Positions 7,426 through 49,597 of a stretch of DNA of 53,860 nt are shown in pieces. The notes beneath the pieces were generated by a model that made no database searches, had not been told where the DNA came from, and saw only the letters and a program-made list of their open reading frames with translations. The stretch's first letter is position 1. Each line of letters opens with the position of its first letter. The position numbers were made by a program, and so were the translations under genes. This DNA comes from Deltaproteobacteria bacterium (lineage in GTDB: Bacteria; Desulfobacterota; Syntrophobacteria; BM002), in assembly GCA_020347625.1 (NCBI GenBank), contig CP070735.1, forward strand, positions 1,378,020-1,431,879, in the 5' to 3' direction.

Positions 7426-9465
7426 TTATGTGGGCAGCACCTGGTAGCTGGCATAGGTGAAAAGACCCACCAATGCCCAGCCTCCCGCCATCAGAAAATC
7501 GCCCAGAATTAAACCGATAAAGAAAAATCTTATTTTTTTAAAAAGGGATACGCCGCCGTATCTTAGACTCAAATGGTTGCAAAGCCAGCCCACCAGAAAG
7601 CTGAACCAGAGGATCCGCATGGCCGAACTATACGTGGTTAAATAGCCTATAGGGTGGATGGGCCACCAGTAAAAGCGTTGATAGAGAATCACCAGAACAA
7701 GCATGACCACAGCCCCCACACCTGAAAACACCAGCACCCAATGGCGTGGTCCTCCCGGCGCATCCAGGAGTCGCTGGACATTATCATACACACCAATAGT
7801 GGTTCGGGTGGCCCACTCCATCTGGAGTTCTCGAATCCCGTATTTGTGGCAAAGCGCCAGCATGGCCACAAAAGACGCCAACAACCCGGTGAGTATGGCC
7901 AGAAGAATAGCCACAAAGAAAATACGTTTATTGCGGATACCCTCTCCCACCTTGGCGCCATGAAACAGAGAGGGCATTATGGATTCCCTCAAGTCGACAA
8001 ACATTACCTTCTGCATGACCGCGGCCATTAGTAAACCCAAATTGGTAAAGAAACGGGAGCCAAAAAAGGCGAGCAGGCCATCGGTGGGTGCCACCGAAAG
8101 GGTAAAGTAGGCGATGCCTCCTTGGCATATCACCCTGGTCGCCACCAGCATAACAAAGAAGAAAGCGCCAAGGAGCAGAAGGGTCACCTTCAGGGACATA
8201 CCAAACTTGAGGCACCATAAAACCAGCAAACAGGTTCCCAACCAGAACCCCCAACCGGACATCCGCACAGAAAACATCTCCGATGCGGACATTTGCGCCT
8301 TCCCGGGAACAAAGCACTGCCGCACCACATCCCGGAGGTGGTAGCGTGCCAACCACAGCATGAAGAGAAAGAAAACCGCATAAGCCCCGATGATCTGCGT
8401 CTCTTCAGGGCGGGAAAGAGTGGGCCCGAAAGTAATACCCAGGGCAGCAGCAGGGATGTTGTAGCCCAGAATGGACAATAGCCCGAACAGCAGACCCCCT
8501 AGCAGAAAAAAGAACCAGAAGCTAAAGGAAATCTGGCGCGAGGTAAGAAAGGCAAAGCCAATGAAGGCGGGATAAATGTGAATCTTGAGCTTGTGGAAAC
8601 CTGAAAAAAGGCCATGTTTCGGGAAATAGGGACCGGCAAGAATCAGCGTGGGAATTTGGGGCACCTCGGGAAAATAGAAGTGGAGACCGTTGAGAAGGTG
8701 CAAGAAAAAAGTGGCCAGCACTCCGACAATCAGGAATCGATTGGCGAGAAACCGGCCGAAGCGTTTTTCGGCCAGGGCCTCCTCCATGAGCTGGGGCACC
8801 CGGAGGAGCGGAAAGTTCATCTTTTCGTTGGTAATCCATTGCTGGCTAAAAATATTCACCAGGCATAGCATCACCCAGTAGCTCAGAACAATAAAGCCGG
8901 CCCAGGTAAGTAGCGGCTGCAACCAGCGATCCCAAGGAATCTGCCGCAGGACCTCCAACCAGCCTAGCTGGCGCCCTCCCTCAAGTCCATTGTAGAGGAG
9001 CGCAATGGCATTCATATCGCCCGGATACCACCCCTTGGGTAAAAGGGGCTGAATCACCTCGTTCCAACGATTTCCAACGGTTGCGAAGTGGTAGGGCGCC
9101 GTGACATTGATGAAAAAGGTCCGAGCTAGGCCGGTGTAGGCAATTCCCGAGGCAATAACCGATATGATCCAGATCACGAAAAGCTCTCGACCACTCAGCA
9201 GCGATGATAGAAACCGTAGTCTACCCAAGGCCGCAATAGCCACGGAGAGCCAGAAAAAAATGAAAAATGGTGCGAGAGGAAAGTGACCGCCACCCAGCGG
9301 TGTGGCACTACGATAGGCGTTGTTGAATGGGGTTATGGCACAGATCAGTACTCCTAGTGCCACCCCCAATATCAAGGCTCGCAGTCTTACCCGACCTTGC
9401 ATCATCTTCACGTCCGCTTCGCTAATAACGGTCAACTCCACACAGAGACGATATTTCGTCGGCAC
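7426..9465 (-). CDS. large polytopic membrane protein (679 aa), family not recognised
   Basis: GTG at 9465 lies 12 nt after the stop of the giant upstream gene. Alternative ATG-ATG at 9405/9402. Hydrophobic throughout. C-terminal WWPIHPIGY...LRYGG block. Confidence 0.75.
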   Translation of the reverse strand: MPTKYRLCVELTVISEADVKMMQGRVRLRALILGVALGVLICAITPFNNAYRSATPLGGGHFPLAPFFIFFWLSVAIAALGRLRFLSSLLSGRELFVIWIISVIASGIAYTGLARTFFINVTAPYHFATVGNRWNEVIQPLLPKGWYPGDMNAIALLYNGLEGGRQLGWLEVLRQIPWDRWLQPLLTWAGFIVLSYWVMLCLVNIFSQQWITNEKMNFPLLRVPQLMEEALAEKRFGRFLANRFLIVGVLATFFLHLLNGLHFYFPEVPQIPTLILAGPYFPKHGLFSGFHKLKIHIYPAFIGFAFLTSRQISFSFWFFFLLGGLLFGLLSILGYNIPAAALGITFGPTLSRPEETQIIGAYAVFFLFMLWLARYHLRDVVRQCFVPGKAQMSASEMFSVRMSGWGFWLGTCLLVLWCLKFGMSLKVTLLLLGAFFFVMLVATRVICQGGIAYFTLSVAPTDGLLAFFGSRFFTNLGLLMAAVMQKVMFVDLRESIMPSLFHGAKVGEGIRNKRIFFVAILLAILTGLLASFVAMLALCHKYGIRELQMEWATRTTIGVYDNVQRLLDAPGGPRHWVLVFSGVGAVVMLVLVILYQRFYWWPIHPIGYLTTYSSAMRILWFSFLVGWLCNHLSLRYGGVSLFKKIRFFFIGLILGDFLMAGGWALVGLFTYASYQVLPT

Positions 9466-9476
9466 CAGGCACTTCG

Positions 9477-12400
9477 CTATGCCCAGCTCATTGCCGTCAG
9501 CCTTTCAGAGCTAAATTCGGTCTCCAACAATTTGCTATAGTGAGCCTGGGCCTCATCGTCCAGAGAACGCCACACCAACAGTTGTTTACGAAGATCATTG
9601 AGGAAGGCCTTGTTGATCCGTTTCCAGTAATTCGCCTCTCCTGCCTCCCGCTCTACCCGGACCTGGATTTCCAGGTAGTTGTCAGGATCCTCAACGGCAG
9701 GGCAAAATTGGAGGCTAACGAGCTGTTTCACGCCAAAATCAAAGGGTGCCAACCATACCCGGGTGTAAATCTGGATGCAGTCATTCTCACAATGTCCCGG
9801 GGCCTCGAGGCGAGATATCTCGTCAATTGGGCAGTAGAATTCCAGAGATATGTCGTCTGTGGTGAAAAGCCCGTGAGACACATCCCGATGTCCAAGATAG
9901 TATTCCCGCAAATAACCGCCAATACCCTTTTGTTCGCGATATTTCAACAGAAACGGCAAGGTGATCTTGATCTCGTTTTCCTCCGGTTCCGGCAATTTCC
10001 AGGCTCGGTATACGTCGGGAATGGCAATGTCTGCTGCCACCTTGGAAGGATAAATGACCGATACCAGTACGACCAACATCACCAGGATCATGGCAGCGAC
10101 TCCAGCCAACGAGGAGTAATTCACCGTAATTCCCTGCCACAGTGATGTGGTGGAAAAAATTTCTGCGGAGGTCTGGGCCAACAGGTAACCCAGCACCACG
10201 CTGAGCACTGCAAAGGCCATCGCTTCGGCTATGAAAAGAAAGGAGACATGAAAGGGCGCCAAGCCAACTGAAGTGTAAACACCGATTTCCCGTTTTCGCT
10301 CATAAACACTGCCAATCATGGTGTTGAGGACGATCAACACGGCAATGAGCAGGGGAATGAGTATATTGGGAACGCCACTGTAGCTCAAGGCGTCGGAGGC
10401 GTGATACATGAAAGTCCCTTCCTCTTCTCCACTGAAAAGGGTAAGGCCAAAGCGATCCACCAGGTTCATGGCTGTTGTCCTGGTTACCACCCCTGATTGG
10501 GGACTTATGGCAAGAGACTTGAGACTCCCGCCCAAGGCCATAAGGGTTTGATATGGAACGATCAGGGTGAGATCTCCGGCAACATGTTGATAGCGACTCT
10601 GGAAAGCCTGGACATCCTCGCCAGCCTCTATGGCCTCCATCTCGACCTCAGTGACCTCTTTGGCCGCCTCGCTGGGAAATATCACAGGTGTGAGCGGCTC
10701 ACCGTCTAAATCAAGAAAGCTCTGCAGGCTATCACCCCGAAACAGACCCACAACCTTAAAGGTCATGCCCCAGAGAGTCACCGTGGCTCTCTCAGGTCGC
10801 TCCAAAGAGACCCCGAGACTCTGAGCCAACCTTTCCGACAGGAGCACCACCCGCCGCTCTTCCGGTTCGAACCAACGTCCAGAACTGAGCACTGTTCCAA
10901 GGCCGCTGACCTGCGGTTCTCGATCACTCAACCCCACCGTCCCTCTTGCCAGAACTTCCCTACCCTCCCGCCGAAGAGAAACCACCATGGGCTGGGTGCG
11001 ATCTTCGTTTTCCAGCCAAGATCTGGGTACAACTTCCCCCTGGGCCTTAAACTTGTTTGCTACTGTGGTAAAAGCCTGAGGCGGCAGGCTCTCCCAGTTC
11101 AGAACTTTCAAGAGAAACCCTTCGTAGGGTGCCTGTTTCTGCAACTGCAACCGGCCTCGCAGGCGCAGACTCTTTACGGTGGTGAAACTCATGATGGTGA
11201 AGGTAAGTATGATCAAGGTCACACAGGTTAATACCGTACGAATGGGGCGGCGTCGTAGATTACTTACCCCCAGAACAAAAGCGGCGACGAATGCTTTGGT
11301 CTTGCTGATTTCGGAAGCCTTTATATGTCGGGCTCTTTGTTGGAGCTCCACCATTTCCTGTTCAAAGCGGTTCATGATGATCAAGGCTACCATCACCGAC
11401 AGACCCAGGATGAAAAAAGCGAGGATAACCACCACCGGACTGTACGTGAGCTGAAATGCTGGATGTACTTGGTAAATGAGAGCTATGACGAGACCCAGGA
11501 TCACCAGAAAAGCAATGATTCTGCGATGAATATCAACGAAAGAGAATAGCAACCGTTCTACACAATAAGCGAAGGGAACAAAAAGGGCCACGTAAAAGAG
11601 GACTCCGAACAGAACGTCTTTCTGCGTCTTTTCTACGTCGTCATAGACGCGGATTGCCAGAGCCCAAGATTTCTTGGCCTCCTCCACAAAGCGGTCATAG
11701 CGACGTTCGCTCAAGGCCTCTTCAGCCCGTTGCAGGGCCTCGACCCCCTCTTGTTGGAGTGAGCGAATCCGCTGATTATTGATCCCATGGCTCTCCAAAG
11801 CGGTTATCCTCGGCAGCAAGAGGCTCCACATATCGTGAGCTATCCGGTATTCAGTAGCCGGGATGATTGGCCAGTTCTCAACGCGATACCCCGTGCCGTC
11901 GGGCCGGGACTTTTTGGAATTGAGCAAGATTAGCTTCCGGGTGAGCACCGAGTCAGACAGGGTCAATTTGAACGGTGTGAGAGGCTCCAGGTAAATGCTA
12001 GCCAGAATGGAGGAACGGGTATCGATCCTGCTCCACCAGTAGCGCAATGGCTTGGCCTCGGTCCGCCCGTCTATCAGCTTTATCTTGGTCATGTAACTGA
12101 AGGTTCGCGGCTCTATTAGACTGAACAATGTACTCACCCTACATGCAAACATAATCAGTTCAGTCTCCATGAAGCGACGCCTCATCTTGACTCGATAGGC
12201 TGCCTTGCCGGTCATTGGTTTGTCGACGGCCCAAATAACCTCCCCGTTTTTGGGATCGAAGCGAAATCCTTCCAAAATTGCCTTGTGGATGGTGTGCTTG
12301 CTGTCGGCCAGACCCCGAAACTGAAATGAACCGGCAGTGTCCACCATGCTGTAGAATTGGCCAGGCCCTTGATAGGCAAGAATGAGCGTTCCCGAAGCTG

Positions 12401-14381
12401 GCTGATCAGGAAAGAGTTCTCCTTGACGGATAAAGTTGGCTTCACCGCTGAGTGTGGCAAATCCCTTCCGAGGCAGAAGGTCCGAAGCCAAACGGGGTTC
12501 GCGGCTTAACGCCTCCACCAGACTGGCAACCAGTTCACTCTGTTGATTGAAATAAGCCCAGTCCACCCTCTCCGGCTGATCATAGGGTGTTCCCCAAAAC
12601 GGGCGGGCGTCATTGAGCGTAACCAGGCTGAGACCGAGTATCCCGGCCAGTGCACTCACCTCACCACCTAAGAGAGGCCGATCAGGCAGGTAGCTCTGCC
12701 AGGTTCGCAGGGGGTTTGGCCGCAGCGTGTCCTGAAACAGCCGAGGCAAGCCAAGCCGCTTTTCCGCCTCGCGGCCAATGCGATTCAGTAGCTGGTCTAT
12801 ATGACCGTAAGTTGCGGTGCGGTTAATTTGCGGTTTCAAATCATACAGAAAGCCGTCGTTGAAGCCGCCAACACCGTCGCCGTGGCTGGAAAGGTGCAGC
12901 GAAACAAAAAGAGGGAGATCGTAATCACCGAGTAATCGGCGCAACCGTCGACTGCTCTTCAAGCATTTCATCTGCTCCCTGGAGTCCTCCAGAATCGCCT
13001 GGTTGGTGCGAATTGCCGCTGGAATGAGTGCCAGCAACGTGCGACGCTCATCAGGAGTAACATCCTGATAGGAACTTCGCCAGCTGAGTCTCCGCAGCAG
13101 GAACCGCCGGGCTGCCAGGTTCGCAATGAGCTGTTGGTCAGCGTCGTCCTGTTTTTCCAGACGGAGTTGCATTAGTCGCTGACTGAGCGAGTCGACTTCG
13201 CTTTTAACCTGGTCGTCTAGGACCTCACGCAAGCGCACCGCTTGTTCTCCACTCAGTTGATCCAGAGGCTTTGGAGAACTTAGAACCTCCAGCGCCGCCT
13301 CGGCCCCTTCGATCCTCTTTTTCAGCTCTTTATTCAGCTTTTTTTGTTCTTTACTTCTGGCATGGGTGGCCCAGATGAACTCCCGTATACCGGCAAGACC
13401 CTGGGCATGCCCGCTGGTCGCAACCAGAAGAACCGATCTGCCCGGCGGATGGCCACGCAACCTTCTTGCCAGGTGCAGCAGTGAAGCAATGCTACTTGCC
13501 TCATCAGTCCCTGGAGATACGCCAGTCACAATAGGAGTGCTGTCATAGAAAGCCTCCACCACGAGAAGCTGCTCTTTGAGCTGCGGATCATTACCCTCAA
13601 CTAGAGCATAAATGTTCTCGCTTTTGATCCTTTTCCAAGCGCCACTGGAGGTGACGACCACCCGGGGGACAACGACCCCGCCTGCTGCATTTTCAAAGGA
13701 ACCGAACAGGGAGCGCGCCTGGGTGAGGGGCATCCAAAAACGGGGAAAATTTAAGGAGGTGAGCTCGCGCTTCTCTGTGAAAAACCATTTGGCCGTAGGA
13801 CCCCGGTCCACATAAATCAGAGCTTTGGCGCCGAGCATGGCAGCATTTAACCAGTTCTTACCAGAATCCATCTCCATCAGGATAATGCTGCCGTTGACCT
13901 CCATGCCATTGAACTCGTGGGATCGGCCTGTGCCCACATAGAGGAGGGGGCCTTCTAGGCCTGAAGCAGGCGTGACTTCCAGACTGAGCGCATTGAGTTG
14001 GAGTGGTTTGATGGGAGTGCGGCGTCCGTTTATGGTGAGGCTCGCTTCCTGGTATTGGTTGACCGGTAGCAGGAATGGGTGGCGACCCACCTTTTGGAAT
14101 CCCAGGTCTGAGAAGGTCTGGTATATCAGGTCTGCTGCTTTCCGACAGCCTGGGGTTCCCGTGCTCCGGTCCTTGAATTCAGCAAATTGCTGGGCCAGGT
14201 CTCGACTAGAGTATGCTGCCTTGGCAGCCACAGGATGTAGCACGCATGAAGCCGTAATAAACAGGAGACCCGCCAGGGCCCACAGTAGGCTTCCGGCCAC
14301 TGCTTTTCTACGAATGATGGGCATCATCTTCATTGCGGTCCTGGAACCATTGGGGACGGCTGACCCTGACTGGAGGCTCAA
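9477..14381 (-). CDS. giant fusion protein: signal anchor, PA plus M28-like (degenerate) ectodomain, coiled coil, extra TM cluster, MacB-type FtsX permease, and a cytoplasmic C-terminal domain
   Basis: PA-like GPLLYVGTGRSHEFNGMEVNGSIILME. M28-like ENIYALVEGN...LLVVEAFYDS, GTDEASSIASLLHLARRL and LLVATSGHAQGLAG. FtsX N-terminal TM RRRPIRTVLTCVTLIILTFTIMSF. FtsX core YERKREIGVYTSVGLAPFHVSFLFIAEAMAFAVLSVVLGYLLAQ. TTG at 14381. In-frame ATGs at 14333, 14327 and 14324 are more likely starts. Confidence 0.85.
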   Translation of the reverse strand: MSLQSGSAVPNGSRTAMKMMPIIRRKAVAGSLLWALAGLLFITASCVLHPVAAKAAYSSRDLAQQFAEFKDRSTGTPGCRKAADLIYQTFSDLGFQKVGRHPFLLPVNQYQEASLTINGRRTPIKPLQLNALSLEVTPASGLEGPLLYVGTGRSHEFNGMEVNGSIILMEMDSGKNWLNAAMLGAKALIYVDRGPTAKWFFTEKRELTSLNFPRFWMPLTQARSLFGSFENAAGGVVVPRVVVTSSGAWKRIKSENIYALVEGNDPQLKEQLLVVEAFYDSTPIVTGVSPGTDEASSIASLLHLARRLRGHPPGRSVLLVATSGHAQGLAGIREFIWATHARSKEQKKLNKELKKRIEGAEAALEVLSSPKPLDQLSGEQAVRLREVLDDQVKSEVDSLSQRLMQLRLEKQDDADQQLIANLAARRFLLRRLSWRSSYQDVTPDERRTLLALIPAAIRTNQAILEDSREQMKCLKSSRRLRRLLGDYDLPLFVSLHLSSHGDGVGGFNDGFLYDLKPQINRTATYGHIDQLLNRIGREAEKRLGLPRLFQDTLRPNPLRTWQSYLPDRPLLGGEVSALAGILGLSLVTLNDARPFWGTPYDQPERVDWAYFNQQSELVASLVEALSREPRLASDLLPRKGFATLSGEANFIRQGELFPDQPASGTLILAYQGPGQFYSMVDTAGSFQFRGLADSKHTIHKAILEGFRFDPKNGEVIWAVDKPMTGKAAYRVKMRRRFMETELIMFACRVSTLFSLIEPRTFSYMTKIKLIDGRTEAKPLRYWWSRIDTRSSILASIYLEPLTPFKLTLSDSVLTRKLILLNSKKSRPDGTGYRVENWPIIPATEYRIAHDMWSLLLPRITALESHGINNQRIRSLQQEGVEALQRAEEALSERRYDRFVEEAKKSWALAIRVYDDVEKTQKDVLFGVLFYVALFVPFAYCVERLLFSFVDIHRRIIAFLVILGLVIALIYQVHPAFQLTYSPVVVILAFFILGLSVMVALIIMNRFEQEMVELQQRARHIKASEISKTKAFVAAFVLGVSNLRRRPIRTVLTCVTLIILTFTIMSFTTVKSLRLRGRLQLQKQAPYEGFLLKVLNWESLPPQAFTTVANKFKAQGEVVPRSWLENEDRTQPMVVSLRREGREVLARGTVGLSDREPQVSGLGTVLSSGRWFEPEERRVVLLSERLAQSLGVSLERPERATVTLWGMTFKVVGLFRGDSLQSFLDLDGEPLTPVIFPSEAAKEVTEVEMEAIEAGEDVQAFQSRYQHVAGDLTLIVPYQTLMALGGSLKSLAISPQSGVVTRTTAMNLVDRFGLTLFSGEEEGTFMYHASDALSYSGVPNILIPLLIAVLIVLNTMIGSVYERKREIGVYTSVGLAPFHVSFLFIAEAMAFAVLSVVLGYLLAQTSAEIFSTTSLWQGITVNYSSLAGVAAMILVMLVVLVSVIYPSKVAADIAIPDVYRAWKLPEPEENEIKITLPFLLKYREQKGIGGYLREYYLGHRDVSHGLFTTDDISLEFYCPIDEISRLEAPGHCENDCIQIYTRVWLAPFDFGVKQLVSLQFCPAVEDPDNYLEIQVRVEREAGEANYWKRINKAFLNDLRKQLLVWRSLDDEAQAHYSKLLETEFSSERLTAMSWA

Positions 14382-35022: not shown

Positions 35023-36186
35023 TTAGCTCTGCTGCGGAGACTCCCAGATACCGGGTATAGGCTGGCCGCAACTACCACAGCTACCCTGTTTCAACCGCAG
35101 TACTTGAACCCTGTAACCCATTCGCCTGATGAGCTGGGCGTTGCATCGTGGACAATTGGTGTGTTCACCAGGGTGGCCCGGCACATTGCCGAGATAGACA
35201 AAATGGAGACCCTCACGAAGGGCCGTTGCTCTCGCCTGCTCCAGAATGGTCACTGGAGTTGGAGGCAGGCTTTTCAGTTTATAGAGTGGATAGAAACGGC
35301 TAAAGTGCAAAGGTACATCCGGCCCGAGTTCCTTCTTGATCCACCTGCACATTGCAGCTATCTGACCCATATCATCATTTTTCCCGGGAACAACCAGGTT
35401 AACGATCTCCGTGTGAATGGACGATCTTTTGAGCCCCTTCAGTGCCTCTAGCACAGGCCCCAGTGACCCCTCGGTGATCTCCAAGTAGTACTTCTCGCTG
35501 AAGCCCTTCAAGTCTATGCAAGCTGCATCCAGATACTTGCAGAGTTCTTGAAGCGGAGTAGTATTGATGTAACCATTGGAGTGCATCACTTTCAAGAGAC
35601 CCTTTTGTCTGGCCAAGGCGCCAATATCGATCATGTACTCCGTAAAAATGGTGGGCTCGACATAGGTGGATGCAATGGATTGGCACTGGTAGCGGCTAGC
35701 TAACTGGACCACCTTGTCGGGGGCCATATCATAATTTAGGGTCTCATCTGGTCGGGCTTGAGAGATTTCCCAGTTTTGACAGAATTTGCAGTCGAAATTA
35801 CAGCCCGCGGTGGCAATGGAGAAAGAGCGGCTTGTTGGCAATACATGATAAAATGGTTTTTTCTCGATGGGATCCACGTGGACTGCACAAGGATTGCCGT
35901 AAACCAGGGAGTAATAGCGCCCACCGATGTTTTCCCGAACCTCGCAGTAACCCCTTTCGCCCTCATCCACTTCACAGGCATGGGGACAGAGGTCGCAACG
36001 AATACGACCTTCCCCCAGCTGGGTGAAAAATGGAGAAAGTTTGCGACCAAGAAATCCCTTTTCCAGATCGAGAGAATGTGCCCGAGACGCAGTCGTGATC
36101 TGAAAAATGGGCTCCATGCTCGCACAGATAAGGGCACACCGCCCGCACTGTTTTAAGAATTCGCGCCTGCTAATTGAATGCTTCAT
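35023..36186 (-). CDS. AmmeMemoRadiSam system radical SAM enzyme with a twin-arginine signal peptide
   Basis: CNFDCKFCQNWEISQ radical-SAM cluster motif. N-terminus MKHSISRREFLKQCGRCALICA has the S-R-R-x-F-L-K Tat consensus. ATG 36186 (the track ORF starts at 36225). Confidence 0.85.
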   Translation of the reverse strand: MKHSISRREFLKQCGRCALICASMEPIFQITTASRAHSLDLEKGFLGRKLSPFFTQLGEGRIRCDLCPHACEVDEGERGYCEVRENIGGRYYSLVYGNPCAVHVDPIEKKPFYHVLPTSRSFSIATAGCNFDCKFCQNWEISQARPDETLNYDMAPDKVVQLASRYQCQSIASTYVEPTIFTEYMIDIGALARQKGLLKVMHSNGYINTTPLQELCKYLDAACIDLKGFSEKYYLEITEGSLGPVLEALKGLKRSSIHTEIVNLVVPGKNDDMGQIAAMCRWIKKELGPDVPLHFSRFYPLYKLKSLPPTPVTILEQARATALREGLHFVYLGNVPGHPGEHTNCPRCNAQLIRRMGYRVQVLRLKQGSCGSCGQPIPGIWESPQQS

Positions 36187-36262
36187 GCAGAATTTCCCTG
36201 GCCAAAAAGAGAGTGTCCCAGACATGTGGCGCGTTGGGAAGAAAGCCTAATTGCAGAAAAAA

Positions 36263-37789
36263 TCACATATTTTCGGGTGAGAACACATCAGCAGAAAAAA
36301 TGTAGATCTCCGTCTTCTTGTCCTTCCAGGCATCAACAGGCAGACCGGCCTTGGTACAGGTATGCTCCAGAAAGGTGTTGCGGTCCCAACCCCATTCTGT
36401 GGCTACCTGTGGCAACAGCAAACCGGCATGGCTGCCACGCTTCATATAGATGCCGTGTGTTCCCACTTGTATTTCTTCCACATTGGAGATGCGGTGCAGA
36501 GGCGTAAGAACAGAGATTTCATACTCCAGCTGTTCTAATTCCTCAGTGGTGACCGGTGGAAAGCGCGGGTCCTGAAATGCTGCGGCCTCTGCCATTTCGA
36601 CCACAGTTTTGACCAACGGCTTCTGACCTCGAATATGCCCAATACATCCCCTGAGCTTGCCATCTTTGTGGAGAGTCACGAAAGCGCCCCGCAATTCATT
36701 CAAAGTGGGGGAGGTCACCTTGGGTTCGACCATCTTTTCGCCTCTACAGCCCGCCTCCACCACCTCTCGAGCGATCTCCAGCAAAATTGTCTTCTCTTCC
36801 GAGGTGAGCCCCAGGTCGACCCCTACTCGCTTATGCATGGGTTCCTGGCCTTTGCTCTTCCCCGGATTAGACCAGAGTGCGGCGGCCATATAGCCGACCA
36901 CCCCACTGTGATCACCAGTAACATCGCCCGAGTTGGCATAGTGCAACACCCGACTCTTGTTGGCTCCCAACTTGCGTGCAATGAGCATGGCAGCGACCAT
37001 GGGGCCGCCCCCGCAAGCCTCGCATTTACCATTGGCCAGACTGTCGCTCAAACCGCGAGGATCAAACTCATTCACCTTGTCCAGCACTACCTGATCCAAC
37101 TGCTTTGCTTGCTGATACGGGTGAAAGTGGGAGAGATCGGAACTCGCAACGACCAGGACGGATCTGTTCTCCACGGTGTCGGCCACCGCTTCTGCTAACC
37201 AGCTGCAGGTGGTAAAATCCTGGTTACCCATGACCAAAGGCACAAGCTTGAAATCAGGCAGGACCACTTGCAGAAAAGGAAGCTGGATCTCCAGCGAATG
37301 CTCCTGGCTATGGGCTTCAGAAACGTACTCTATGCGGCTCTCGCACTTTTTCAGTGCGGAGATTAGCTCCCGGTCCAACTCCACCACCCCCAGTGGTGTG
37401 CGATACCCCCCCCGATCGTACACCGACACACCTCTGAAGTGAGCGCGGTGGCTGGGAGCAATGATCACCACGGTGGAGAATTTCCGCTCTTCCAGCAGTT
37501 TATAACCGTAGGCAGCCACCTGACCTGAGTAACGGTAGCCTGCATGGGGGGATATGAGGGCGACAAGCTCCCCCTGCAGGTCAGTAACTGAAACCCGGTC
37601 CAGAAAACCCTCGACTTCCTGTTGCAAGCGGGAACTGTTTCCGGGGTACCACGTCCCTGCAATCACCGATTCTCGGACTTGTTCCGAAGACATCATTATA
37701 CCCTCCACGGCGGCCGCATTCTGAATGCCATTGCGGGAACAGAAAAGAAGCGCGGCCAAGATGGTAAGAATTATCAATCGGCGAGCCAT
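36263..37789 (-). CDS. fused Memo-like (AmmeMemoRadiSam protein B) plus AMMECR1 (protein A), with an N-terminal signal peptide
   Basis: AGTWYPG...ISPHAGYRYSG (Memo) and GAFVTLHKDGKLRGCIGHI (AMMECR1). N-terminus MARRLIILTILAALLFCSRNGIQNAAA. Confidence 0.85.
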   Translation of the reverse strand: MARRLIILTILAALLFCSRNGIQNAAAVEGIMMSSEQVRESVIAGTWYPGNSSRLQQEVEGFLDRVSVTDLQGELVALISPHAGYRYSGQVAAYGYKLLEERKFSTVVIIAPSHRAHFRGVSVYDRGGYRTPLGVVELDRELISALKKCESRIEYVSEAHSQEHSLEIQLPFLQVVLPDFKLVPLVMGNQDFTTCSWLAEAVADTVENRSVLVVASSDLSHFHPYQQAKQLDQVVLDKVNEFDPRGLSDSLANGKCEACGGGPMVAAMLIARKLGANKSRVLHYANSGDVTGDHSGVVGYMAAALWSNPGKSKGQEPMHKRVGVDLGLTSEEKTILLEIAREVVEAGCRGEKMVEPKVTSPTLNELRGAFVTLHKDGKLRGCIGHIRGQKPLVKTVVEMAEAAAFQDPRFPPVTTEELEQLEYEISVLTPLHRISNVEEIQVGTHGIYMKRGSHAGLLLPQVATEWGWDRNTFLEHTCTKAGLPVDAWKDKKTEIYIFSADVFSPENM

Positions 37790-44558: not shown

Positions 44559-44699
44559 GGAATATTGGAAGGTTGGAATAATGGAATGATGGGGTAAGGA
44601 TCATTTCAGTTTGTAGATTGCGGATTTCAAGAAAGGCTACCTCTTCCGTTTACCTCTCACGATTCACGATTTAACGCTTGCCGTTTACGCTTTATCGTT
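44559..44699. repeat. period-8 GGAANNNT array, an AGATTGC word, then a period-7 CACGATT/TACGCTT array
   Basis: GGAATATT GGAAGGTT GGAATAAT GGAATGAT (44559-44590). GTAGATTGCGGATTTC (about 44611-44628). CACGATT CACGATT TAACGCT TGCCGTT TACGCTT TATCGTT (44658-44699). Confidence 0.8.
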
Positions 44700-47011
44700 T
44701 ACTCTAATCGCTTCCACCGTGTGCCCTCCGGAGTGTCGATAACCTGGATACCACAATCTAGTAGCGCCTGCCGAAGACGGTCGGCTTCGTCCCAGCGCTT
44801 GTCACGCCTGGCCTCAATCCTGGCCTCCAAAAGTCGGCAAGTATCTTCATCCAATTCCGCTTGGACTCGGTAGATGAGATTGAGCACTGAATCCAACCGT
44901 TCCATAGCCTCCAGCGCAGCTTCCCTCTGGCTCTCACTCAGAAGTCCCCTTGAAATGAATGGATTGAGTTTGCGGATAAAACTGAAGACGGCAGCAAGTG
45001 CTGAAGAGATGTTCAAATCGTCAGCCATCGCCTCGTCAAAATTTTGCTCAACTTCAAAAATGAACTGGTCAACCTCTTCGCCAGCCTCTCCGGTCGACCC
45101 ATGTTGCAGTCTCTGGATAAACTCATCCAAACGTTCCAGGCTCCGGGCTGCTTCCCGCAATCGATCCTCCTCAAAATGCAGGGCTTTGCGGTAGTGGGTG
45201 GCCAGCAACCAGTAACGAATCTGTCTGCCGCTGTAGCCTCGATCTGAGAGCTGCTGGATCGTTACCCTGCCCTCGCCTTCCTTGGACATCTTCTTGCCAC
45301 CCGGCAATACCCGTTCGCAATGGATGAAGTAGTTGGCAAGCGGTTTGCCGCTGGCTGTCTGGCCAATGGCAATCTCGTTTTCATTGTGAGGGAACAAAAA
45401 ATCCAAGCTGCTGGTGTGTATATCTATGGTCTCCCCTAAATATTTCTTGGCCAACGCTACTGTCTCAAGATGCAGTGATGGCAACACATTACCCCAGGAA
45501 GTTTTCAGATAGTTCCCGCTTTTCAGTTCGGCTAAAGTGGCCCGTCTGAGCAGGGTGAAGTCTCGGGGATTCTCTTTCTCGTAGGCTTCAAGATCAACTG
45601 TCTTCCCGAGGCGAATCTTCTGGAGATCCACCCTAGACAGCCGCCCATAGTCCTCAAATTTGGAGATATCAAAATAGACCGAGCGTAACTTCTCGTAGGC
45701 GTAACCTTTTTCCATGAGGCTCTTACTGATCTCCAGTATGTCATCAACATGCTCGCTTGTGCGTGGATAGTAAGTGGCTGGCTGCACACCCAAAATGTCC
45801 AAATCTCGATTGCAGGTCTCAATGCATTGCCTGGCAGCAATGTCAAAAGTCACGCTGTCCACCGCCGAATCCAGAACCGCCTTCTCTCCCATGTCGGTGA
45901 TATTGATCACCTGGGTTACCTCGAAACCCTTCTGCTCCAAATATCGCCGCATGAGATCAGCCACCACAAAACGGCGGCTGTCTCCCAGGTCGAGGGATTC
46001 GCCTACGGTTGGACCGGTGGTGAACAGTGAGATCTTGCCCTCAAAGATCGGCTTGAAGTCTTCTTTTTGGCGGGAGAGTGTATTGTAAAAACGGAAATCT
46101 GGTTCTGAGAGGGTAGTAAACAGATTGGTGCTTAGATAACGCTCGCCACCGTCTGGAAGGATGGCAACAATTGTGCCCTGCTTTAATTCGCTGGCCTTGC
46201 GAAGTGCAGCAGCCATGGCAGCCCCGCCGCTCATTCCCACAAACAAACCCTCCTGTCGGGCCAACCGCCTTGCGGTCTCGAAGGCTTCCGCATCTTCGAT
46301 ATGCACGATCTCATCCAGGATCTCTTTGTCGAATATCCCAGGAACGTAAGACTCTTTCATATTCTTGAGCCCCTGAATCTTGTGCCCCATATATGGCTCA
46401 ACAGCGATCATACAGACGTCTTCTAGATATTCCTTCATGCGTCTGGTAAGGCCAATGGCCGTACCGGTAGTACCAAGAGTCGTTACGACGTGGGTTACCC
46501 TCCCCTCGGTTTGCTCCCAAATTTCGCGGGCGGTGCCAAAATAATGCGCCTTCCAGTTATCTTCGTTGTTGAATTGATCGGGCATGTAATACCGGTCAGG
46601 AAATTGCCGCACAAGCTCATAAACTTTTTCTATGGCTCCGTCAGTACCAAGGGCGCCAGGGGTCAACAGGATCTCCGCCCCCAGTGCCTTGAGTATTTTC
46701 TGGCGTTCTTGGCTGGCGGTCTCGGGCATGGCCAATGTAATAGTGTAGCCTTTCACCGCAGCGACCATAGCCAGGCCGATGCCGGTATTGCCACTTGTGG
46801 CCTCGATGATAGTCCTATCGGGAGTCAACTCGCCCCGTTGTTCGGCTTCCTCGATCATCTGAAGCGCAATTCTGTCCTTTACTGACCCGCCGGGATTCTG
46901 GGCTTCCAGCTTTGCGTAAATCCTTACCTGGGGATTTGGATTGAGGCGGTTGATCAGGATCAGCGGCGTGTTGCCAATCAACTGCAGGACATTATCATAG
47001 ACATTTCCCAT
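44699..47011 (-). CDS. cysteine synthase (CysK/CysM-type, PLP) fused to a full-length but signature-degenerate cysteinyl-tRNA-synthetase-like module
   Basis: N-terminal GGSVKDR (PLP Lys), EATSGNTGIG, LGTTGT and GMSGGAA. From about residue 305, FYNTLSRQKEDFKP (CysRS N-terminus), but DLGD replaces HIGH and KMSKE replaces KMSKS. The CysRS-like anticodon-binding and C-terminal helices are retained. Confidence 0.85.
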   Translation of the reverse strand: MGNVYDNVLQLIGNTPLILINRLNPNPQVRIYAKLEAQNPGGSVKDRIALQMIEEAEQRGELTPDRTIIEATSGNTGIGLAMVAAVKGYTITLAMPETASQERQKILKALGAEILLTPGALGTDGAIEKVYELVRQFPDRYYMPDQFNNEDNWKAHYFGTAREIWEQTEGRVTHVVTTLGTTGTAIGLTRRMKEYLEDVCMIAVEPYMGHKIQGLKNMKESYVPGIFDKEILDEIVHIEDAEAFETARRLARQEGLFVGMSGGAAMAAALRKASELKQGTIVAILPDGGERYLSTNLFTTLSEPDFRFYNTLSRQKEDFKPIFEGKISLFTTGPTVGESLDLGDSRRFVVADLMRRYLEQKGFEVTQVINITDMGEKAVLDSAVDSVTFDIAARQCIETCNRDLDILGVQPATYYPRTSEHVDDILEISKSLMEKGYAYEKLRSVYFDISKFEDYGRLSRVDLQKIRLGKTVDLEAYEKENPRDFTLLRRATLAELKSGNYLKTSWGNVLPSLHLETVALAKKYLGETIDIHTSSLDFLFPHNENEIAIGQTASGKPLANYFIHCERVLPGGKKMSKEGEGRVTIQQLSDRGYSGRQIRYWLLATHYRKALHFEEDRLREAARSLERLDEFIQRLQHGSTGEAGEEVDQFIFEVEQNFDEAMADDLNISSALAAVFSFIRKLNPFISRGLLSESQREAALEAMERLDSVLNLIYRVQAELDEDTCRLLEARIEARRDKRWDEADRLRQALLDCGIQVIDTPEGTRWKRLE

Positions 47012-47225
47012 TTTTTTCCCTGTCAGAAAAGCCTTTGCTGTATTCCACCCGAGTTTCCAGTGGAAATACCCTCTGTGTTCCTACCCGTAGAGGTGAAAAA
47101 ACCATACTCAATAAGCGAAACACTTGCAACAACAAAAGATCTAACCCGCATCTACTTCACTTAAGCTCCATAAATGATTATTATATCCTCTATTGTTCAT
47201 TCATTAATAAGGAGATTTTTGACCC

Positions 47226-47492
47226 ATGCTCATGGATCGGAAGATTTTCAGCCTGAATTTATCCGTGGAGGCCACTTCGGCCTACATTCTCATATGCACC
47301 CTGGCCGATAGCGGTACACCGGTCACCATTGAATCAGCGGAAACATTTTGGAATGGTAGCCCGGAAGCATTGACCCGGGCAATTGAAGAACTCAACCGTC
47401 ACCACATAATCTACGAACAGCTCGACGCTAACAAAATGCGACAGTACTTCGTCAATCCATCCGATCTTTGGAAAACCTCTGTTGTCCAATAA
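47226..47492 (+). CDS. hypothetical small protein (88 aa)
   Basis: ATG preceded by AAGGAG at good spacing. No recognisable motif. Confidence 0.5.
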   Translation: MLMDRKIFSLNLSVEATSAYILICTLADSGTPVTIESAETFWNGSPEALTRAIEELNRHHIIYEQLDANKMRQYFVNPSDLWKTSVVQ

Positions 47493-48040: not shown

Positions 48041-49597
48041 TCACTCCGCGGTTTTCTCTTTCAGCCCCAGTTGTCGGGCTATTTCCCGGGCAGTAGCTTC
48101 CACAAAGGTTTTGAACTCGTCCGGAGGCAATACTTTACCTGGTGCTGGCAACTTCTTCAATCCCGGAGCCTCAACCAGCGTGGGGAAATTTCTCAACTCT
48201 GTTTTGGGTAGAACCTCATAAGCCGAATCCAGTTCATCGGCAAAGTAACTCTCCTGGAATCCGGAAAATTTAAGGGCGTGTGCTGTGGCATCCAGGATCG
48301 CCACTTCTTCTGCTGTCACAATCCCCGCTTCTCGGGCCCGGCGCAAGCCTGCCAAACACTCACCGCCCTGGGTGCAGGCAATATGCCCGTTCCGGTTGGC
48401 GATAAGTTGGCAGTCCATAATCTCCTGCTCGCTTACCTGGACTACAAATACCCCCGGGCTCCCAGCTACCCTCTCGTAGGCTTCAACCAGCCGTATAACT
48501 CTAGGCATGGAGACAGGATTCCCGATCATGGCCGCCTGGGCAACGCTGGGTCGAACCGTAACCGGGCGGAATACCCGTTTGTTCGGATCCGATTCTTGAT
48601 AGTAGCGGTAAACTGGATCAGCGTGTTCTGACTGTACACCAATAATTCTTGGCAGTTTTTCAATCACCCCAAGATCCTGTAGCTTCAAAAACCCCCCCAT
48701 CACCGCAGTAATATTCCCGGCATTGCCAATGGGTACCAGTACCACCTTACCCTCAAGCTCGTAATCAAAGCTCTGGGCTACCTCGAAAGAGTAAGACTCC
48801 TGTCCCTGGATGCGCCAAGCGTTTTTCGAATTGAGCAGGGCTACATTGTAGTGGTCGGCAAGGTGTTCCACCACCTTCATACAATCATCAAATACTCCGG
48901 GAATCTCAAATACCTGGGCGCCACTGCCCAAAGGTTGGGAAATTTGCTGAGGTGTTACTTTCTTGTGGGGCAGCAGGACGGCCGACTTGACGGTATCGCT
49001 CATGTAGGAAGAGTACAGCGCTGCGGCAGCCGAGGTATCCCCGGTGGAGGCACAAATAGAGAGCACTTCGGTCAATCCCTGACTGCGAACCAGATAGTTC
49101 AGATAACTCAAAGCACAAGCCATACCCCGGTCTTTAAAGGAGGCGCTCGGGTTCTGCCCGTCATTTTTAAAACAAAAATCCAGCCCCGCCCACTCCCGCA
49201 ACGCAATATTAGCCCTGACTATTGGGGTATGGCCCTCCCCTAGGTAGATAACGTCCTCCAAAGGTATCACCGGTGCGATCAGTTCATGAAATAGGAAAAT
49301 CCCCCTCAGTGGTGGTATGTTGAGCATCCTGCGGTAGTCAAAAAGACGTCGCCAGAAGGCACCACTGCGCTCTTTCAACTTTTCCCACTGAAGATCTTCG
49401 ATCAGCAGGACGCTCTTGCAATCGGGGCAGGTATAGAGGAGAGACTCGATGCCAAAGGTTTCTTCACACTCCAGGCACCTATAGATGAGTTCACCTACAG
49501 GCTGGGGCAAAAGGTATGGTCGAATCTCTTCGGGAAAATCTTCAACCCTCATTGACAGCCTCCCAGAACACACTGCACATCGTTTGGTGCGCAGCAT
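48041..49597 (-). CDS. thrC: threonine synthase with an N-terminal zinc-ribbon region
   Basis: NPSASFKDRGMACALS (PLP Lys). N-terminal YRCLECEETF...YTCPDCKSVL plus an extra CAVC pair. ATG start. Lies 3 nt upstream of the gamma-CA gene. Confidence 0.75.
   Translation of the reverse strand: MLRTKRCAVCSGRLSMRVEDFPEEIRPYLLPQPVGELIYRCLECEETFGIESLLYTCPDCKSVLLIEDLQWEKLKERSGAFWRRLFDYRRMLNIPPLRGIFLFHELIAPVIPLEDVIYLGEGHTPIVRANIALREWAGLDFCFKNDGQNPSASFKDRGMACALSYLNYLVRSQGLTEVLSICASTGDTSAAAALYSSYMSDTVKSAVLLPHKKVTPQQISQPLGSGAQVFEIPGVFDDCMKVVEHLADHYNVALLNSKNAWRIQGQESYSFEVAQSFDYELEGKVVLVPIGNAGNITAVMGGFLKLQDLGVIEKLPRIIGVQSEHADPVYRYYQESDPNKRVFRPVTVRPSVAQAAMIGNPVSMPRVIRLVEAYERVAGSPGVFVVQVSEQEIMDCQLIANRNGHIACTQGGECLAGLRRAREAGIVTAEEVAILDATAHALKFSGFQESYFADELDSAYEVLPKTELRNFPTLVEAPGLKKLPAPGKVLPPDEFKTFVEATAREIARQLGLKEKTAE

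Follow-up and report, generated by a model that had tools for sequence, protein, structure and literature searches.

The 53,860-nt stretch of contig CP070735.1 from a Deltaproteobacteria bacterium that we analyzed (hereafter the window, at its full length) encodes on its reverse strand a 770-residue protein in which a CysM-type cysteine synthase is fused to a full-length module derived from cysteinyl-tRNA synthetase (CysRS). The N-terminal half is an intact, ordinary-looking cysteine synthase that is predicted to be active. The CysRS-derived half has lost catalytic motifs and kept its anticodon contacts, which upholds the core of an earlier, sequence-only reading of this DNA, namely that a tRNA(Cys) scaffold probably unable to activate cysteine is joined to an intact synthase. 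Our current best reading, to which we assign a probability of about 0.4, is that the protein pairs an active synthase with a dead, tRNA(Cys)-binding pseudo-synthetase that would link the tRNA(Cys) pool to cysteine synthesis. Within this reading, tRNA binding, regulation of the synthase, and a second CysRS in the genome are points that we infer rather than observe.

Architecture and authenticity of the fusion gene

Pfam analysis of the 770-aa protein placed PALP at residues 9-287 (E 1.2e-74) and tRNA-synt_1e at residues 319-622 (E 7e-69), followed by DALR_2 (657-710) and CysS_C (719-766). The protein thus divides into a cysteine synthase (residues 1-300) and a full-length CysRS module (residues 306-769), and the open reading frame (ORF) is laid out as follows.

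44699..47011 (-): whole ORF, 770-aa CysM/pseudo-CysRS fusion, with ATG start and TAA stop
46112..47011 (-): residues 1-300, CysM-type cysteine synthase domain dependent on pyridoxal 5'-phosphate (PLP), assigned by PALP, TIGR01136, fold, and motifs
46058..46111 (-): residues 301-318 (LSEPDFRFYNTLSRQKED), linker and start of the CysRS module, short and conserved, with a predicted local distance difference test (pLDDT) below 50 at residues 300-302 in the AlphaFold2 (AF2) model
45146..46057 (-): residues 319-622, class I catalytic region of CysRS (Rossmann fold and connective polypeptide, CP), tRNA-synt_1e, catalytically degenerate
44882..45043 (-): residues 657-710, DALR_2 helical-bundle domain (Pfam)
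44708..44866 (-): residues 716-768, anticodon-binding alpha/beta domain of CysRS (CysS_C)

The fusion is genuine. An assembly chimera, which the sequence-only reading had allowed for, was ruled out because the same architecture recurs in >130 independent sequences, complete genomes among them. The best 120 matches among 5.8 billion proteins, which came from NCBI, JGI, ENA, and Logan assemblies, all share the architecture at 54-100% identity. An identical 770-aa protein is present on two independent short Logan contigs, and relatives are encoded in the complete genomes CP070692.1, CP070843.1, and Desulforhabdus amnigena BSDR01000001.1. Within the clade of the window protein, the linker (residues 301-318) has a mean pairwise identity of 86%.

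The AF2 model of the fusion has a mean pLDDT of 84 and a predicted template modeling (TM) score (pTM) of 0.62, with low confidence at the linker and at a synthase loop (residues 208-225). The C-terminal module model has a TM score of 0.91 to 8qhp and of 0.82 to the tRNA-bound E. coli CysRS 1u0b, and no PDB chain covering both modules was found in the structure comparison. As to the domain interface that the sequence-only reading had raised, both folds were modeled, but no confident interface resulted.

The cysteine synthase half

Over residues 9-298, the protein scores 381.5 bits against TIGR01136 (cysKM), above the cutoff of 344.15. The N-terminal domain narrowly misses both subtype equivalog models, with 374.2 bits for cysM (cutoff 394.2) and 340.4 bits for cysK (cutoff 350.95). 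The earlier description of a normal-looking sulfhydrylase held at the level of sequence, with all four of its signature motifs found at their assigned places.

46871-46885 (-): SVKDR, starting at residue 43, with the Schiff-base lysine K45
46781-46798 (-): TSGNTG, starting at residue 72, the carboxylate-binding loop
46460-46474 (-): GTTGT, starting at residue 180, the PLP-phosphate loop
46217-46234 (-): MSGGAA, starting at residue 260

These motifs are invariant or conservatively varied across 117 full-length family members. When the synthase domain was compared with 62 free-standing CysK/M genes, hardly any family-specific positions appeared, and its GHxIQGLKNM loop is also common in the free-standing genes. 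The domain is 45-47% identical to E. coli CysM, with a TM score of 0.93 (2bhs). As a PALP domain, it belongs to PLP fold type II and not to fold type I, the fold of SepCysS. A CysE-like C-terminal Ile tail able to plug the synthase site is absent from the fusion protein.

The CysRS-derived module has lost catalytic signatures

Residues 307-768 of the fusion align end to end with residues 3-460 of E. coli CysRS (1li5) by HMMER, in agreement with the earlier statement that the C-terminal part matches bacterial CysRS throughout; the E. coli residue numbers used here were verified against the printed alignment. The motifs that matter for catalysis are listed below, each as placed by this alignment.

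46004..46024 (-): FTTGPTV, for YVCGITV of E. coli; Zn ligand C28 becomes Thr332
45980..45991 (-): DLGD, residues 341-344, a degenerate HIGH (E. coli 37-40) with both His replaced by Asp
45458..45472 (-): HLETV, for HIECS of E. coli; Zn ligand C209 becomes Thr517, and the preceding W205 becomes Leu
45374..45391 (-): PHNENE, for PHHENE; Zn ligands H234 (H542) and E238 (E546) are kept, and H235 becomes Asn
45278..45292 (-): KMSKE, residues 574-578, the KMSKS loop; both Lys are kept, and the final Ser becomes Glu

Two claims of the sequence-only reading, that DLGD stands in place of HIGH and that both Zn-ligand cysteines are Thr, were borne out by the profile alignment. Others stood in part. The zinc site of E. 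coli CysRS is formed by ligands that we take to be C28, C209, H234, and E238 (Newberry et al. 2002), and the earlier picture of a lost site is correct for the two cysteines but not for the site as a whole, in that two of the four ligands, H234 and E238, are retained; the equivalent of H234, H542, is invariant within the family. The two cysteines replaced by Thr are the ligands that bind the thiolate of the cysteine substrate. Similarly, the substitution in PHHENE is present but falls on H235 and leaves the ligand H234 intact, and KMSKE differs from KMSKS as had been noted, but the signature is not wholly lost, with only its final Ser changed. Close relatives carry KMSRE or no motif, and N273 of E. 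coli CysRS is Gly in the fusion. Outside these motifs, R168 of the CP1 acceptor-recognition motif is Thr in the fusions examined. Together, these substitutions suggest that the module probably no longer forms Cys-AMP, and a loss of aminoacylation would follow.

The cysS equivalog model TIGR00435 gives 342.1 bits, only marginally above its cutoff of 340. Many database entries name the fusion proteins "cysteinyl-tRNA synthetase" or "cysteine--tRNA ligase," and others name them "cysteine synthase." Because of this score and these names, automated annotation may count a dead enzyme as the CysRS of a genome. MshC-like ligation, one of the functions proposed from the sequence, is unlikely, since the ATP motifs are precisely what was lost and the MshC model TIGR03447 gives 144.3 bits, far below its cutoff of 485.1.

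The anticodon-binding domain is retained

To compare regions of the module, 72 positions were selected that show a conservation of 90% or more across 107 canonical CysRS, and their retention was scored for the window protein and for the D. amnigena class.

Rossmann-N: window protein 14/19, D. amnigena class 8/19
CP: window protein 11/18, D. amnigena class 13/18
Rossmann-C: window protein 11/19, D. amnigena class 8/19
KMSKS region: window protein 6/8, D. amnigena class 3/8
Anticodon domain: window protein 6/6, D. amnigena class 6/6

The window protein departs from the canonical state at 22 of the 72 positions, and all but one of these (21) fall within the catalytic core, made up of Rossmann-N, CP, Rossmann-C, and the KMSKS region. 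The anticodon domain retains six of six positions in every class, including the Desulfovibrionales proteins that are without HIGH, KMSKS, or any Zn cysteine.

The residues that contact the anticodon are all present on the reverse strand of the window: R731, R735, W740, D744, and R747 (44771-44821 (-)) and D759 (-), which correspond to R423, R427, W432, D436, R439, and D451 of E. coli CysRS, respectively. The family alignment shows no variation at R731, R735, D744, R747, and D759, and W740 is conserved at 90% or more. The equivalents of R423, D436, R439, and D451 are retained in every fusion examined, down to module identities of 26-30%. In structure 1U0B, Arg427, Asp436, Trp432, and Arg423 contact G34, and Arg427, Trp432, Asp436, and Arg439 have been mutated to re-engineer anticodon specificity (PMC12684709, PMC13449415).

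The module is under selection and its CP domain is remodeled

Pairwise identity within the window clade averages 87% for the synthase, 81% for the Rossmann/CP region, and 75-76% for the helical and anticodon domains. Codon comparison with CP070692.1 and CP070843.1 gave a ratio of nonsynonymous to synonymous divergence (dN/dS) of ∼0.06 for the CysRS module, a value that is approximate because dS is saturated. Across the entire protein, dN is lowest in the CP domain (0.05-0.06) and highest in Rossmann-N (∼0.2), with a value of 0.08 for the synthase. The CysRS module is under purifying selection, which is strongest in the CP domain.

This domain is also where the family-specific signature positions cluster.

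45473..45706 (-): remodeled CP domain, residues 436-513, with the lowest dN and with additional basic residues
45515-45532 (-): AELKSG, family-specific CP insertion, 3-4 residues beyond E. coli CysRS, including L496, K497, and G499

Further CP positions that are conserved in the family yet non-canonical are K441, K465, D473, L474, T486, R490, L493, and T504, a partly basic set. Family-specific positions outside the CP domain are R347, I549 (canonical Q241, 99% conserved), and K609.

Distribution and stepwise decay of the family

The fusion architecture spans Desulfobacterota. Named sources among the best 120 matches are Syntrophobacterales, Syntrophobacteraceae, D. amnigena, and Desulfofervidaceae. 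A scan of GTDB species genomes, keyed on CysK motifs, yielded among the matches listed full-length fusions in Desulfobacterales, Desulforapulum autotrophicum, Desulfatibacillum, Desulfobulbus, Desulfocapsa, Desulfopila, Desulfovibrionaceae, Desulfocurvus, and a Polyangiaceae metagenome-assembled genome (MAG). Long "CysK" matches on six contigs (L034, L036, L042, L056, L071, and L084) were rejected as tandem cysK paralogues.

Three motif classes account for nearly all of the 117 full-length homologues. Both Zn cysteines are retained in 27, most of which also keep HLGN/HLGV/HLGT, PHHENE, and KMSRS; this class is canonical in type, since many canonical CysRS carry HIGN instead of HIGH. The clade of the window protein comprises 70 sequences with FTTGP, DMTE/DLGE/DLGD, HLETV, PHNENE/PHTENE, and KMSRE or nothing. 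The D. amnigena clade (18 sequences) has TLQE, HIAAA, PHLENV, and no KMSKS, and two sequences (P0103 and P0107) lie outside all three classes. Desulfobacterales and Desulfobulbales fusions keep the Zn cysteines and have lost HIGH and/or KMSKS in differing ways; HIGH, KMSKS, and all Zn cysteines are lost in Desulfovibrionales. In a rough neighbor-joining (NJ) tree, the most derived branch ends in the window protein, and on this tree the catalytic motifs decay in a stepwise and lineage-specific manner. Regarding the distribution question left by the sequence-only reading, the fusion is widespread in Desulfobacterota, the Thr states characterize the window clade, in which DLGD occurs beside DMTE and DLGE, and the catalytic motifs vary by clade.

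Two basal members of the family are standalone genes, each preceded at a distance of 2-4 nt by a gene for a cysteine synthase, which indicates that the partnership of CysM with the CysRS-like protein (CysRS') predates the fusion. One of these split-operon synthases is 64% identical to the synthase domain of the window protein.

L090 4209-7293: split cysM-like gene and standalone CysRS-like gene of the same subfamily, 2-4 nt gap
L091 5108-7455: split cysM-like gene and standalone CysRS-like gene of the same subfamily, 2-4 nt gap

On L090 the split pair is followed by a gene for a MoeB/ThiF-type E1-like adenylyltransferase, an arrangement that hints that this CysM subfamily may draw its sulfur from a thiocarboxylate carrier.

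The split operons and the near-canonical bacterial fusions (class A, e.g., P0079 and P0121) share their modules, module order, and CysRS subfamily with the degenerate fusion but differ from it in keeping the Zn cysteines, a HIGN/HLGN-type motif, and KMS(K/R)S. Because of these retained features, they may be genuinely bifunctional. With the exception of P0132, described below, we regard these forms as the evolutionary precursors of the degenerate fusion. The family appears to have begun as a cysM-cysS' operon and then to have passed through fusion with a near-canonical CysRS, with the window protein at the most degenerate end.

P0132 (MFW6014224.1, from a Nanoarchaeota MAG) is a 768-aa CysK-CysRS fusion with fully canonical HIGN, GWHLECS, and KMSKS. 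As it nests among ordinary CysRS in the NJ tree, it represents an independent fusion event and is probably bifunctional. Among the sequences compared, P0182 (711 aa) joins a canonical CysRS to a hexapeptide-repeat domain resembling serine acetyltransferase, and P0166 (858 aa) is an apparently tandem or partly duplicated CysRS.

The canonical CysRS sequences that could be traced to a source came from Omnitrophota, Aminicenantes, and archaeal/DPANN genomes; P0135, the canonical representative closest to the module, has its relatives in Omnitrophota and Aminicenantes. These origins suggest that the module did not arise by recent duplication of a cysS gene of its host.

Genomic context

In the clade of the window protein, the conserved gene order is a thrC-like gene, usually a gamma-carbonic-anhydrase-like gene, a divergent 87-88-aa ORF, the fusion, and an anti-sigma factor with an extracytoplasmic function (ECF) sigma factor. 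The elements next to the fusion in the window are as follows.

47101..47129 (-): block resembling a promoter (TTGCAA-17 nt-TATGGT), upstream of the fusion, a consensus match conserved in two related complete genomes
47226..47492 (+): divergent 88-aa ORF, adjoining the fusion in all four genomes of the clade
48041-49597 (-): threonine-synthase-like PLP protein of 518 aa, thrC 172.4 against a cutoff of 167.1

The 88-aa ORF shows 49-76% identity with an invariant LSVEATSAYILIC stretch and no Pfam or NCBIfam match; it could encode a small regulator. The 518-aa protein, whose gene keeps its place two genes upstream of the fusion throughout the window clade, carries a CxxC-rich, Zn-ribbon-like N-terminal extension of ∼100 residues.

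No gene neighbor common to the entire family was found, and in D. amnigena the fusion gene stands alone. In a class A contig (L006 390-3690), the fusion overlaps the end of miaA, encoding tRNA isopentenyltransferase, by 8 nt, which suggests cotranscription with this tRNA-modification gene. In Desulfobacterales, a poorly conserved ∼320-330-aa protein (N-terminus MxPxxFPFT) is always encoded by the gene that immediately follows the fusion. This protein matches no NCBIfam model and is absent from the window.

L012 12282-13253: ∼320-330-aa downstream protein
L013 12275-13267: ∼320-330-aa downstream protein
L016 7169-8260: ∼320-330-aa downstream protein
L017 ∼7752-8711: ∼320-330-aa downstream protein
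L018 2647-3645: ∼320-330-aa downstream protein
L020 1707-2669: ∼320-330-aa downstream protein

At three fusion loci, the fusion is directly followed by a tRNA-Arg(TCT) gene.

L009 8347-8423: tRNA-Arg(TCT), in a "Pseudomonadota bacterium" MAG
L011 5762-5838: tRNA-Arg(TCT), in Desulfocapsa
L014 2523-2599: tRNA-Arg(TCT), in Desulfopila

The tRNA-Arg and tRNA-Ser neighbors of the fusion probably reflect plain local synteny. The window itself contains no tRNA genes and no selB-like genes.

The remainder of the window has ordinary chromosomal content, including the following.

35023-37789 (-): a Memo and AMMECR1 fusion beside a radical SAM gene (AmmeMemoRadiSam-type trio)
7426-9465 (-): a DUF6785/DUF6784 protein
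9477-14381 (-): a 1634-aa ORF

A proposed tRNA(Cys)-binding pseudo-synthetase and its alternatives

In our proposal, the dead CysRS module would bind tRNA(Cys) and so connect the synthase to which it is joined with the pool of tRNA(Cys). This could work as a sensor, in which uncharged tRNA(Cys) would dock on the module and thereby modulate cysteine synthesis, or as a tether, which would position cysteine production beside tRNA(Cys). The Cys-tRNA(Cys) that translation needs would come from another enzyme of the standard type, encoded elsewhere in the genome. Of the functional options offered by the sequence-only reading, sensing is the one that best fits the data.

Several observations weigh against this proposal. 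No second CysRS was found in the window (tblastn) or in the flanks of ∼25 fusion loci, and no tRNA-Cys gene and no conserved pathway partner lie near fusion loci. The window has no Rfam match, and there is no RNA element near the fusion gene. Given the pTM of 0.62 and the low-confidence linker, the AF2 model shows no confident inter-domain geometry and hence no fixed interface that would back allostery. The change of R168 to Thr in CP1 may alter or abolish binding of the acceptor end of the tRNA, and the anticodon-domain residues could be retained for fold stability.

The next most probable reading, although we consider it unlikely, is that the CysRS module is a relic scaffold, left over from an enzyme that was once bifunctional and kept for folding, solubility, or oligomerization with no tRNA role, and that only the synthase matters. 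In keeping with this, the synthase half is ordinary and exceeds the other large domains in conservation, the genes around the fusion differ across the family, AF2 assigns no confident geometry between the domains, and the catalytic motifs decay in many ways, as relaxed selection predicts. A mere scaffold, however, would not be expected to have its CP domain as the most constrained region, with new basic residues and an insertion fixed there, and the exact anticodon-reading residues are retained in every fusion examined, down to 26-30% module identity, while catalytic residues are lost. Split operons, moreover, keep the CysRS-like protein as a separate polypeptide.

An improbable alternative is tRNA-linked synthesis, in which the scaffold would hold Ser-, O-phosphoserine-, or O-acetylserine-tRNA(Cys) and the PLP domain would convert it to Cys-tRNA(Cys), making the fusion a fold-type-II analogue of SepCysS/SelA. 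A module of the tRNA(Cys)-recognizing type is indeed coupled to a beta-replacement PLP enzyme, both in fusions and in operons, its anticodon contacts are retained, and the host taxa are known for unusual tRNA(Cys)/Sec biology (selC*, SelB*). Yet the TSGNTG loop for a free alpha-carboxylate is kept and the synthase shows no family-specific remodeling, near-canonical members most simply use free cysteine, and the locus has no linked enzyme that could precharge the tRNA. Within bacteria, SepRS is known from no groups other than Parcubacteria and Chloroflexi (Mukai et al.). The SepCysS-like action that the sequence-only reading had entertained is therefore disfavored, since the synthase domain, TSGNTG loop included, is indistinguishable from free-standing CysM and is of fold type II, not I.

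Equally improbable is an mRNA-binding regulator, in which the module would bind an anticodon-arm mimic, as E. coli ThrRS does at its operator, and the synthase would act as a metabolite sensor, as in CysK-CymR, the two together controlling sulfur/cysteine genes post-transcriptionally. Anticodon-reading residues kept without catalytic capacity would suit such a role, and CysK-type proteins do moonlight as sensor subunits, as in CymR-CysK, CysE-CysK, and CdiA-CysK. Upstream of the fusion gene, however, no conserved structured element or GCA-loop mimic was found, and the conserved block looks like an ordinary promoter.

We also consider very doubtful a more radical reading, in which genomes with the degenerate fusion would have no standard CysRS and the fusion would stand at the center of a tRNA-dependent pathway to Cys-tRNA(Cys) that has not been described. 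Its PLP domain would perform the beta-replacement on the precharged tRNA, as a bacterial functional analogue of SepCysS/SelA built from different parts. Least probable of all is that the module still charges tRNA(Cys) by non-canonical catalysis with cysteine channeled from the synthase: the cysS equivalog score is above its cutoff, KMSKE has both lysines, H234 and E238 are kept, and fully canonical CysK-CysRS fusions such as P0132 exist, but Asp replaces both HIGH histidines, the module no longer has W205 or either Zn cysteine, 21 of the 22 changed canonical positions are in the catalytic core, and sister clades without any KMSKS remain under selection.

Relation to known systems and significance

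The fusion shares with canonical CysRS (E. coli CysS, 1li5, 1u0b) the order of Rossmann, CP, SC-fold, helical-bundle, and alpha/beta anticodon domains, as well as the anticodon contacts, H234, E238, and both KMSKS lysines, with TM scores of 0.82-0.91. It differs in DLGD, in the replacement of C28 and C209 by Thr, W205 by Leu, H235 by Asn, and R168 by Thr, in the CP insertion, and in the fused synthase. Relative to free-standing CysM/CysK, it adds a CysRS-like C-terminal module of 470 residues.

With its catalytic signatures lost and the module under selection, the CysRS-derived part matches a pseudo-aminoacyl-tRNA synthetase (pseudo-aaRS) in these two respects. In how it would work, it compares with HisZ and the HisRS-like domain of GCN2, likewise aaRS-derived modules without aminoacylation signatures that serve the economy of the same amino acid. 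HisZ is a HisRS paralogue belonging to ATP-PRT, and the HisRS-like module of GCN2 senses uncharged tRNA. Those modules derive from class II HisRS, whereas the module described here derives from class I CysRS and has a PLP synthase as its partner. The proposed sensor would also be the protein-level counterpart of T-box control of cysES, with a logic like that of the GCN2 domain.

The SepRS-SepCysS(-SepCysE) system likewise pairs a tRNA(Cys)-recognizing protein with a cysteine-making PLP enzyme. There, SepCysS is of fold type I and acts on Sep-tRNA (Sep, O-phosphoserine), and SepRS is an active class II enzyme; the fusion has fold type II, an unmodified site for a free substrate, and a dead tRNA module.

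Among CysRS-derived proteins, MshC and CysRS* resemble the fusion module in having a non-standard role. MshC is an ATP-dependent ligase that has ATP and Zn signatures and no anticodon domain. CysRS*, which is also without the anticodon domain, occurs in Desulfobacterales and has been proposed to charge selC* tRNA(Cys), a role inferred from an engineered D. tiedjei CysRS mimic, the native CysRS* being inactive in E. coli; both selC* tRNA(Cys) and SelB* occur in Syntrophobacterales and Desulfobacterales (Mukai et al. 2017). The fusion module is the opposite of CysRS* and does not qualify as one: it keeps the anticodon domain and loses catalysis.

A 2022 review of aaRS paralogues gives only MshC and CysRS* as paralogues of CysRS, and no CysK/CysM-CysRS fusion or CysM-associated CysRS paralogue was found in full-text literature searches or in Mukai et al. 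2017 (NAR and mBio), a 2020 tRNA review, and the 2022 paralogue review. The module would thus be a third class of CysRS paralogue and a rare bacterial class I pseudo-synthetase that keeps tRNA recognition. An immediate practical consequence is an annotation hazard, as pathway or completeness calls may be misled by the fusion protein. The family preserves the split operon, the near-canonical fusion, the loss of the ATP motifs, and the loss of the Zn site, and so offers a system for studying how a synthetase evolves into a tRNA-binding domain.

If tRNA(Cys) sensing is true, the fusion would exert T-box-like control at the protein level, directly on the biosynthetic enzyme. The hosts of the fusion are central to sulfur cycling and syntrophy. 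Judged by its motifs and conservation, the fusion would belong with the pseudo-synthetase modules, and it points to a connection, not described before, of the supply of cysteine with tRNA(Cys) in bacteria that reduce sulfate or live syntrophically.

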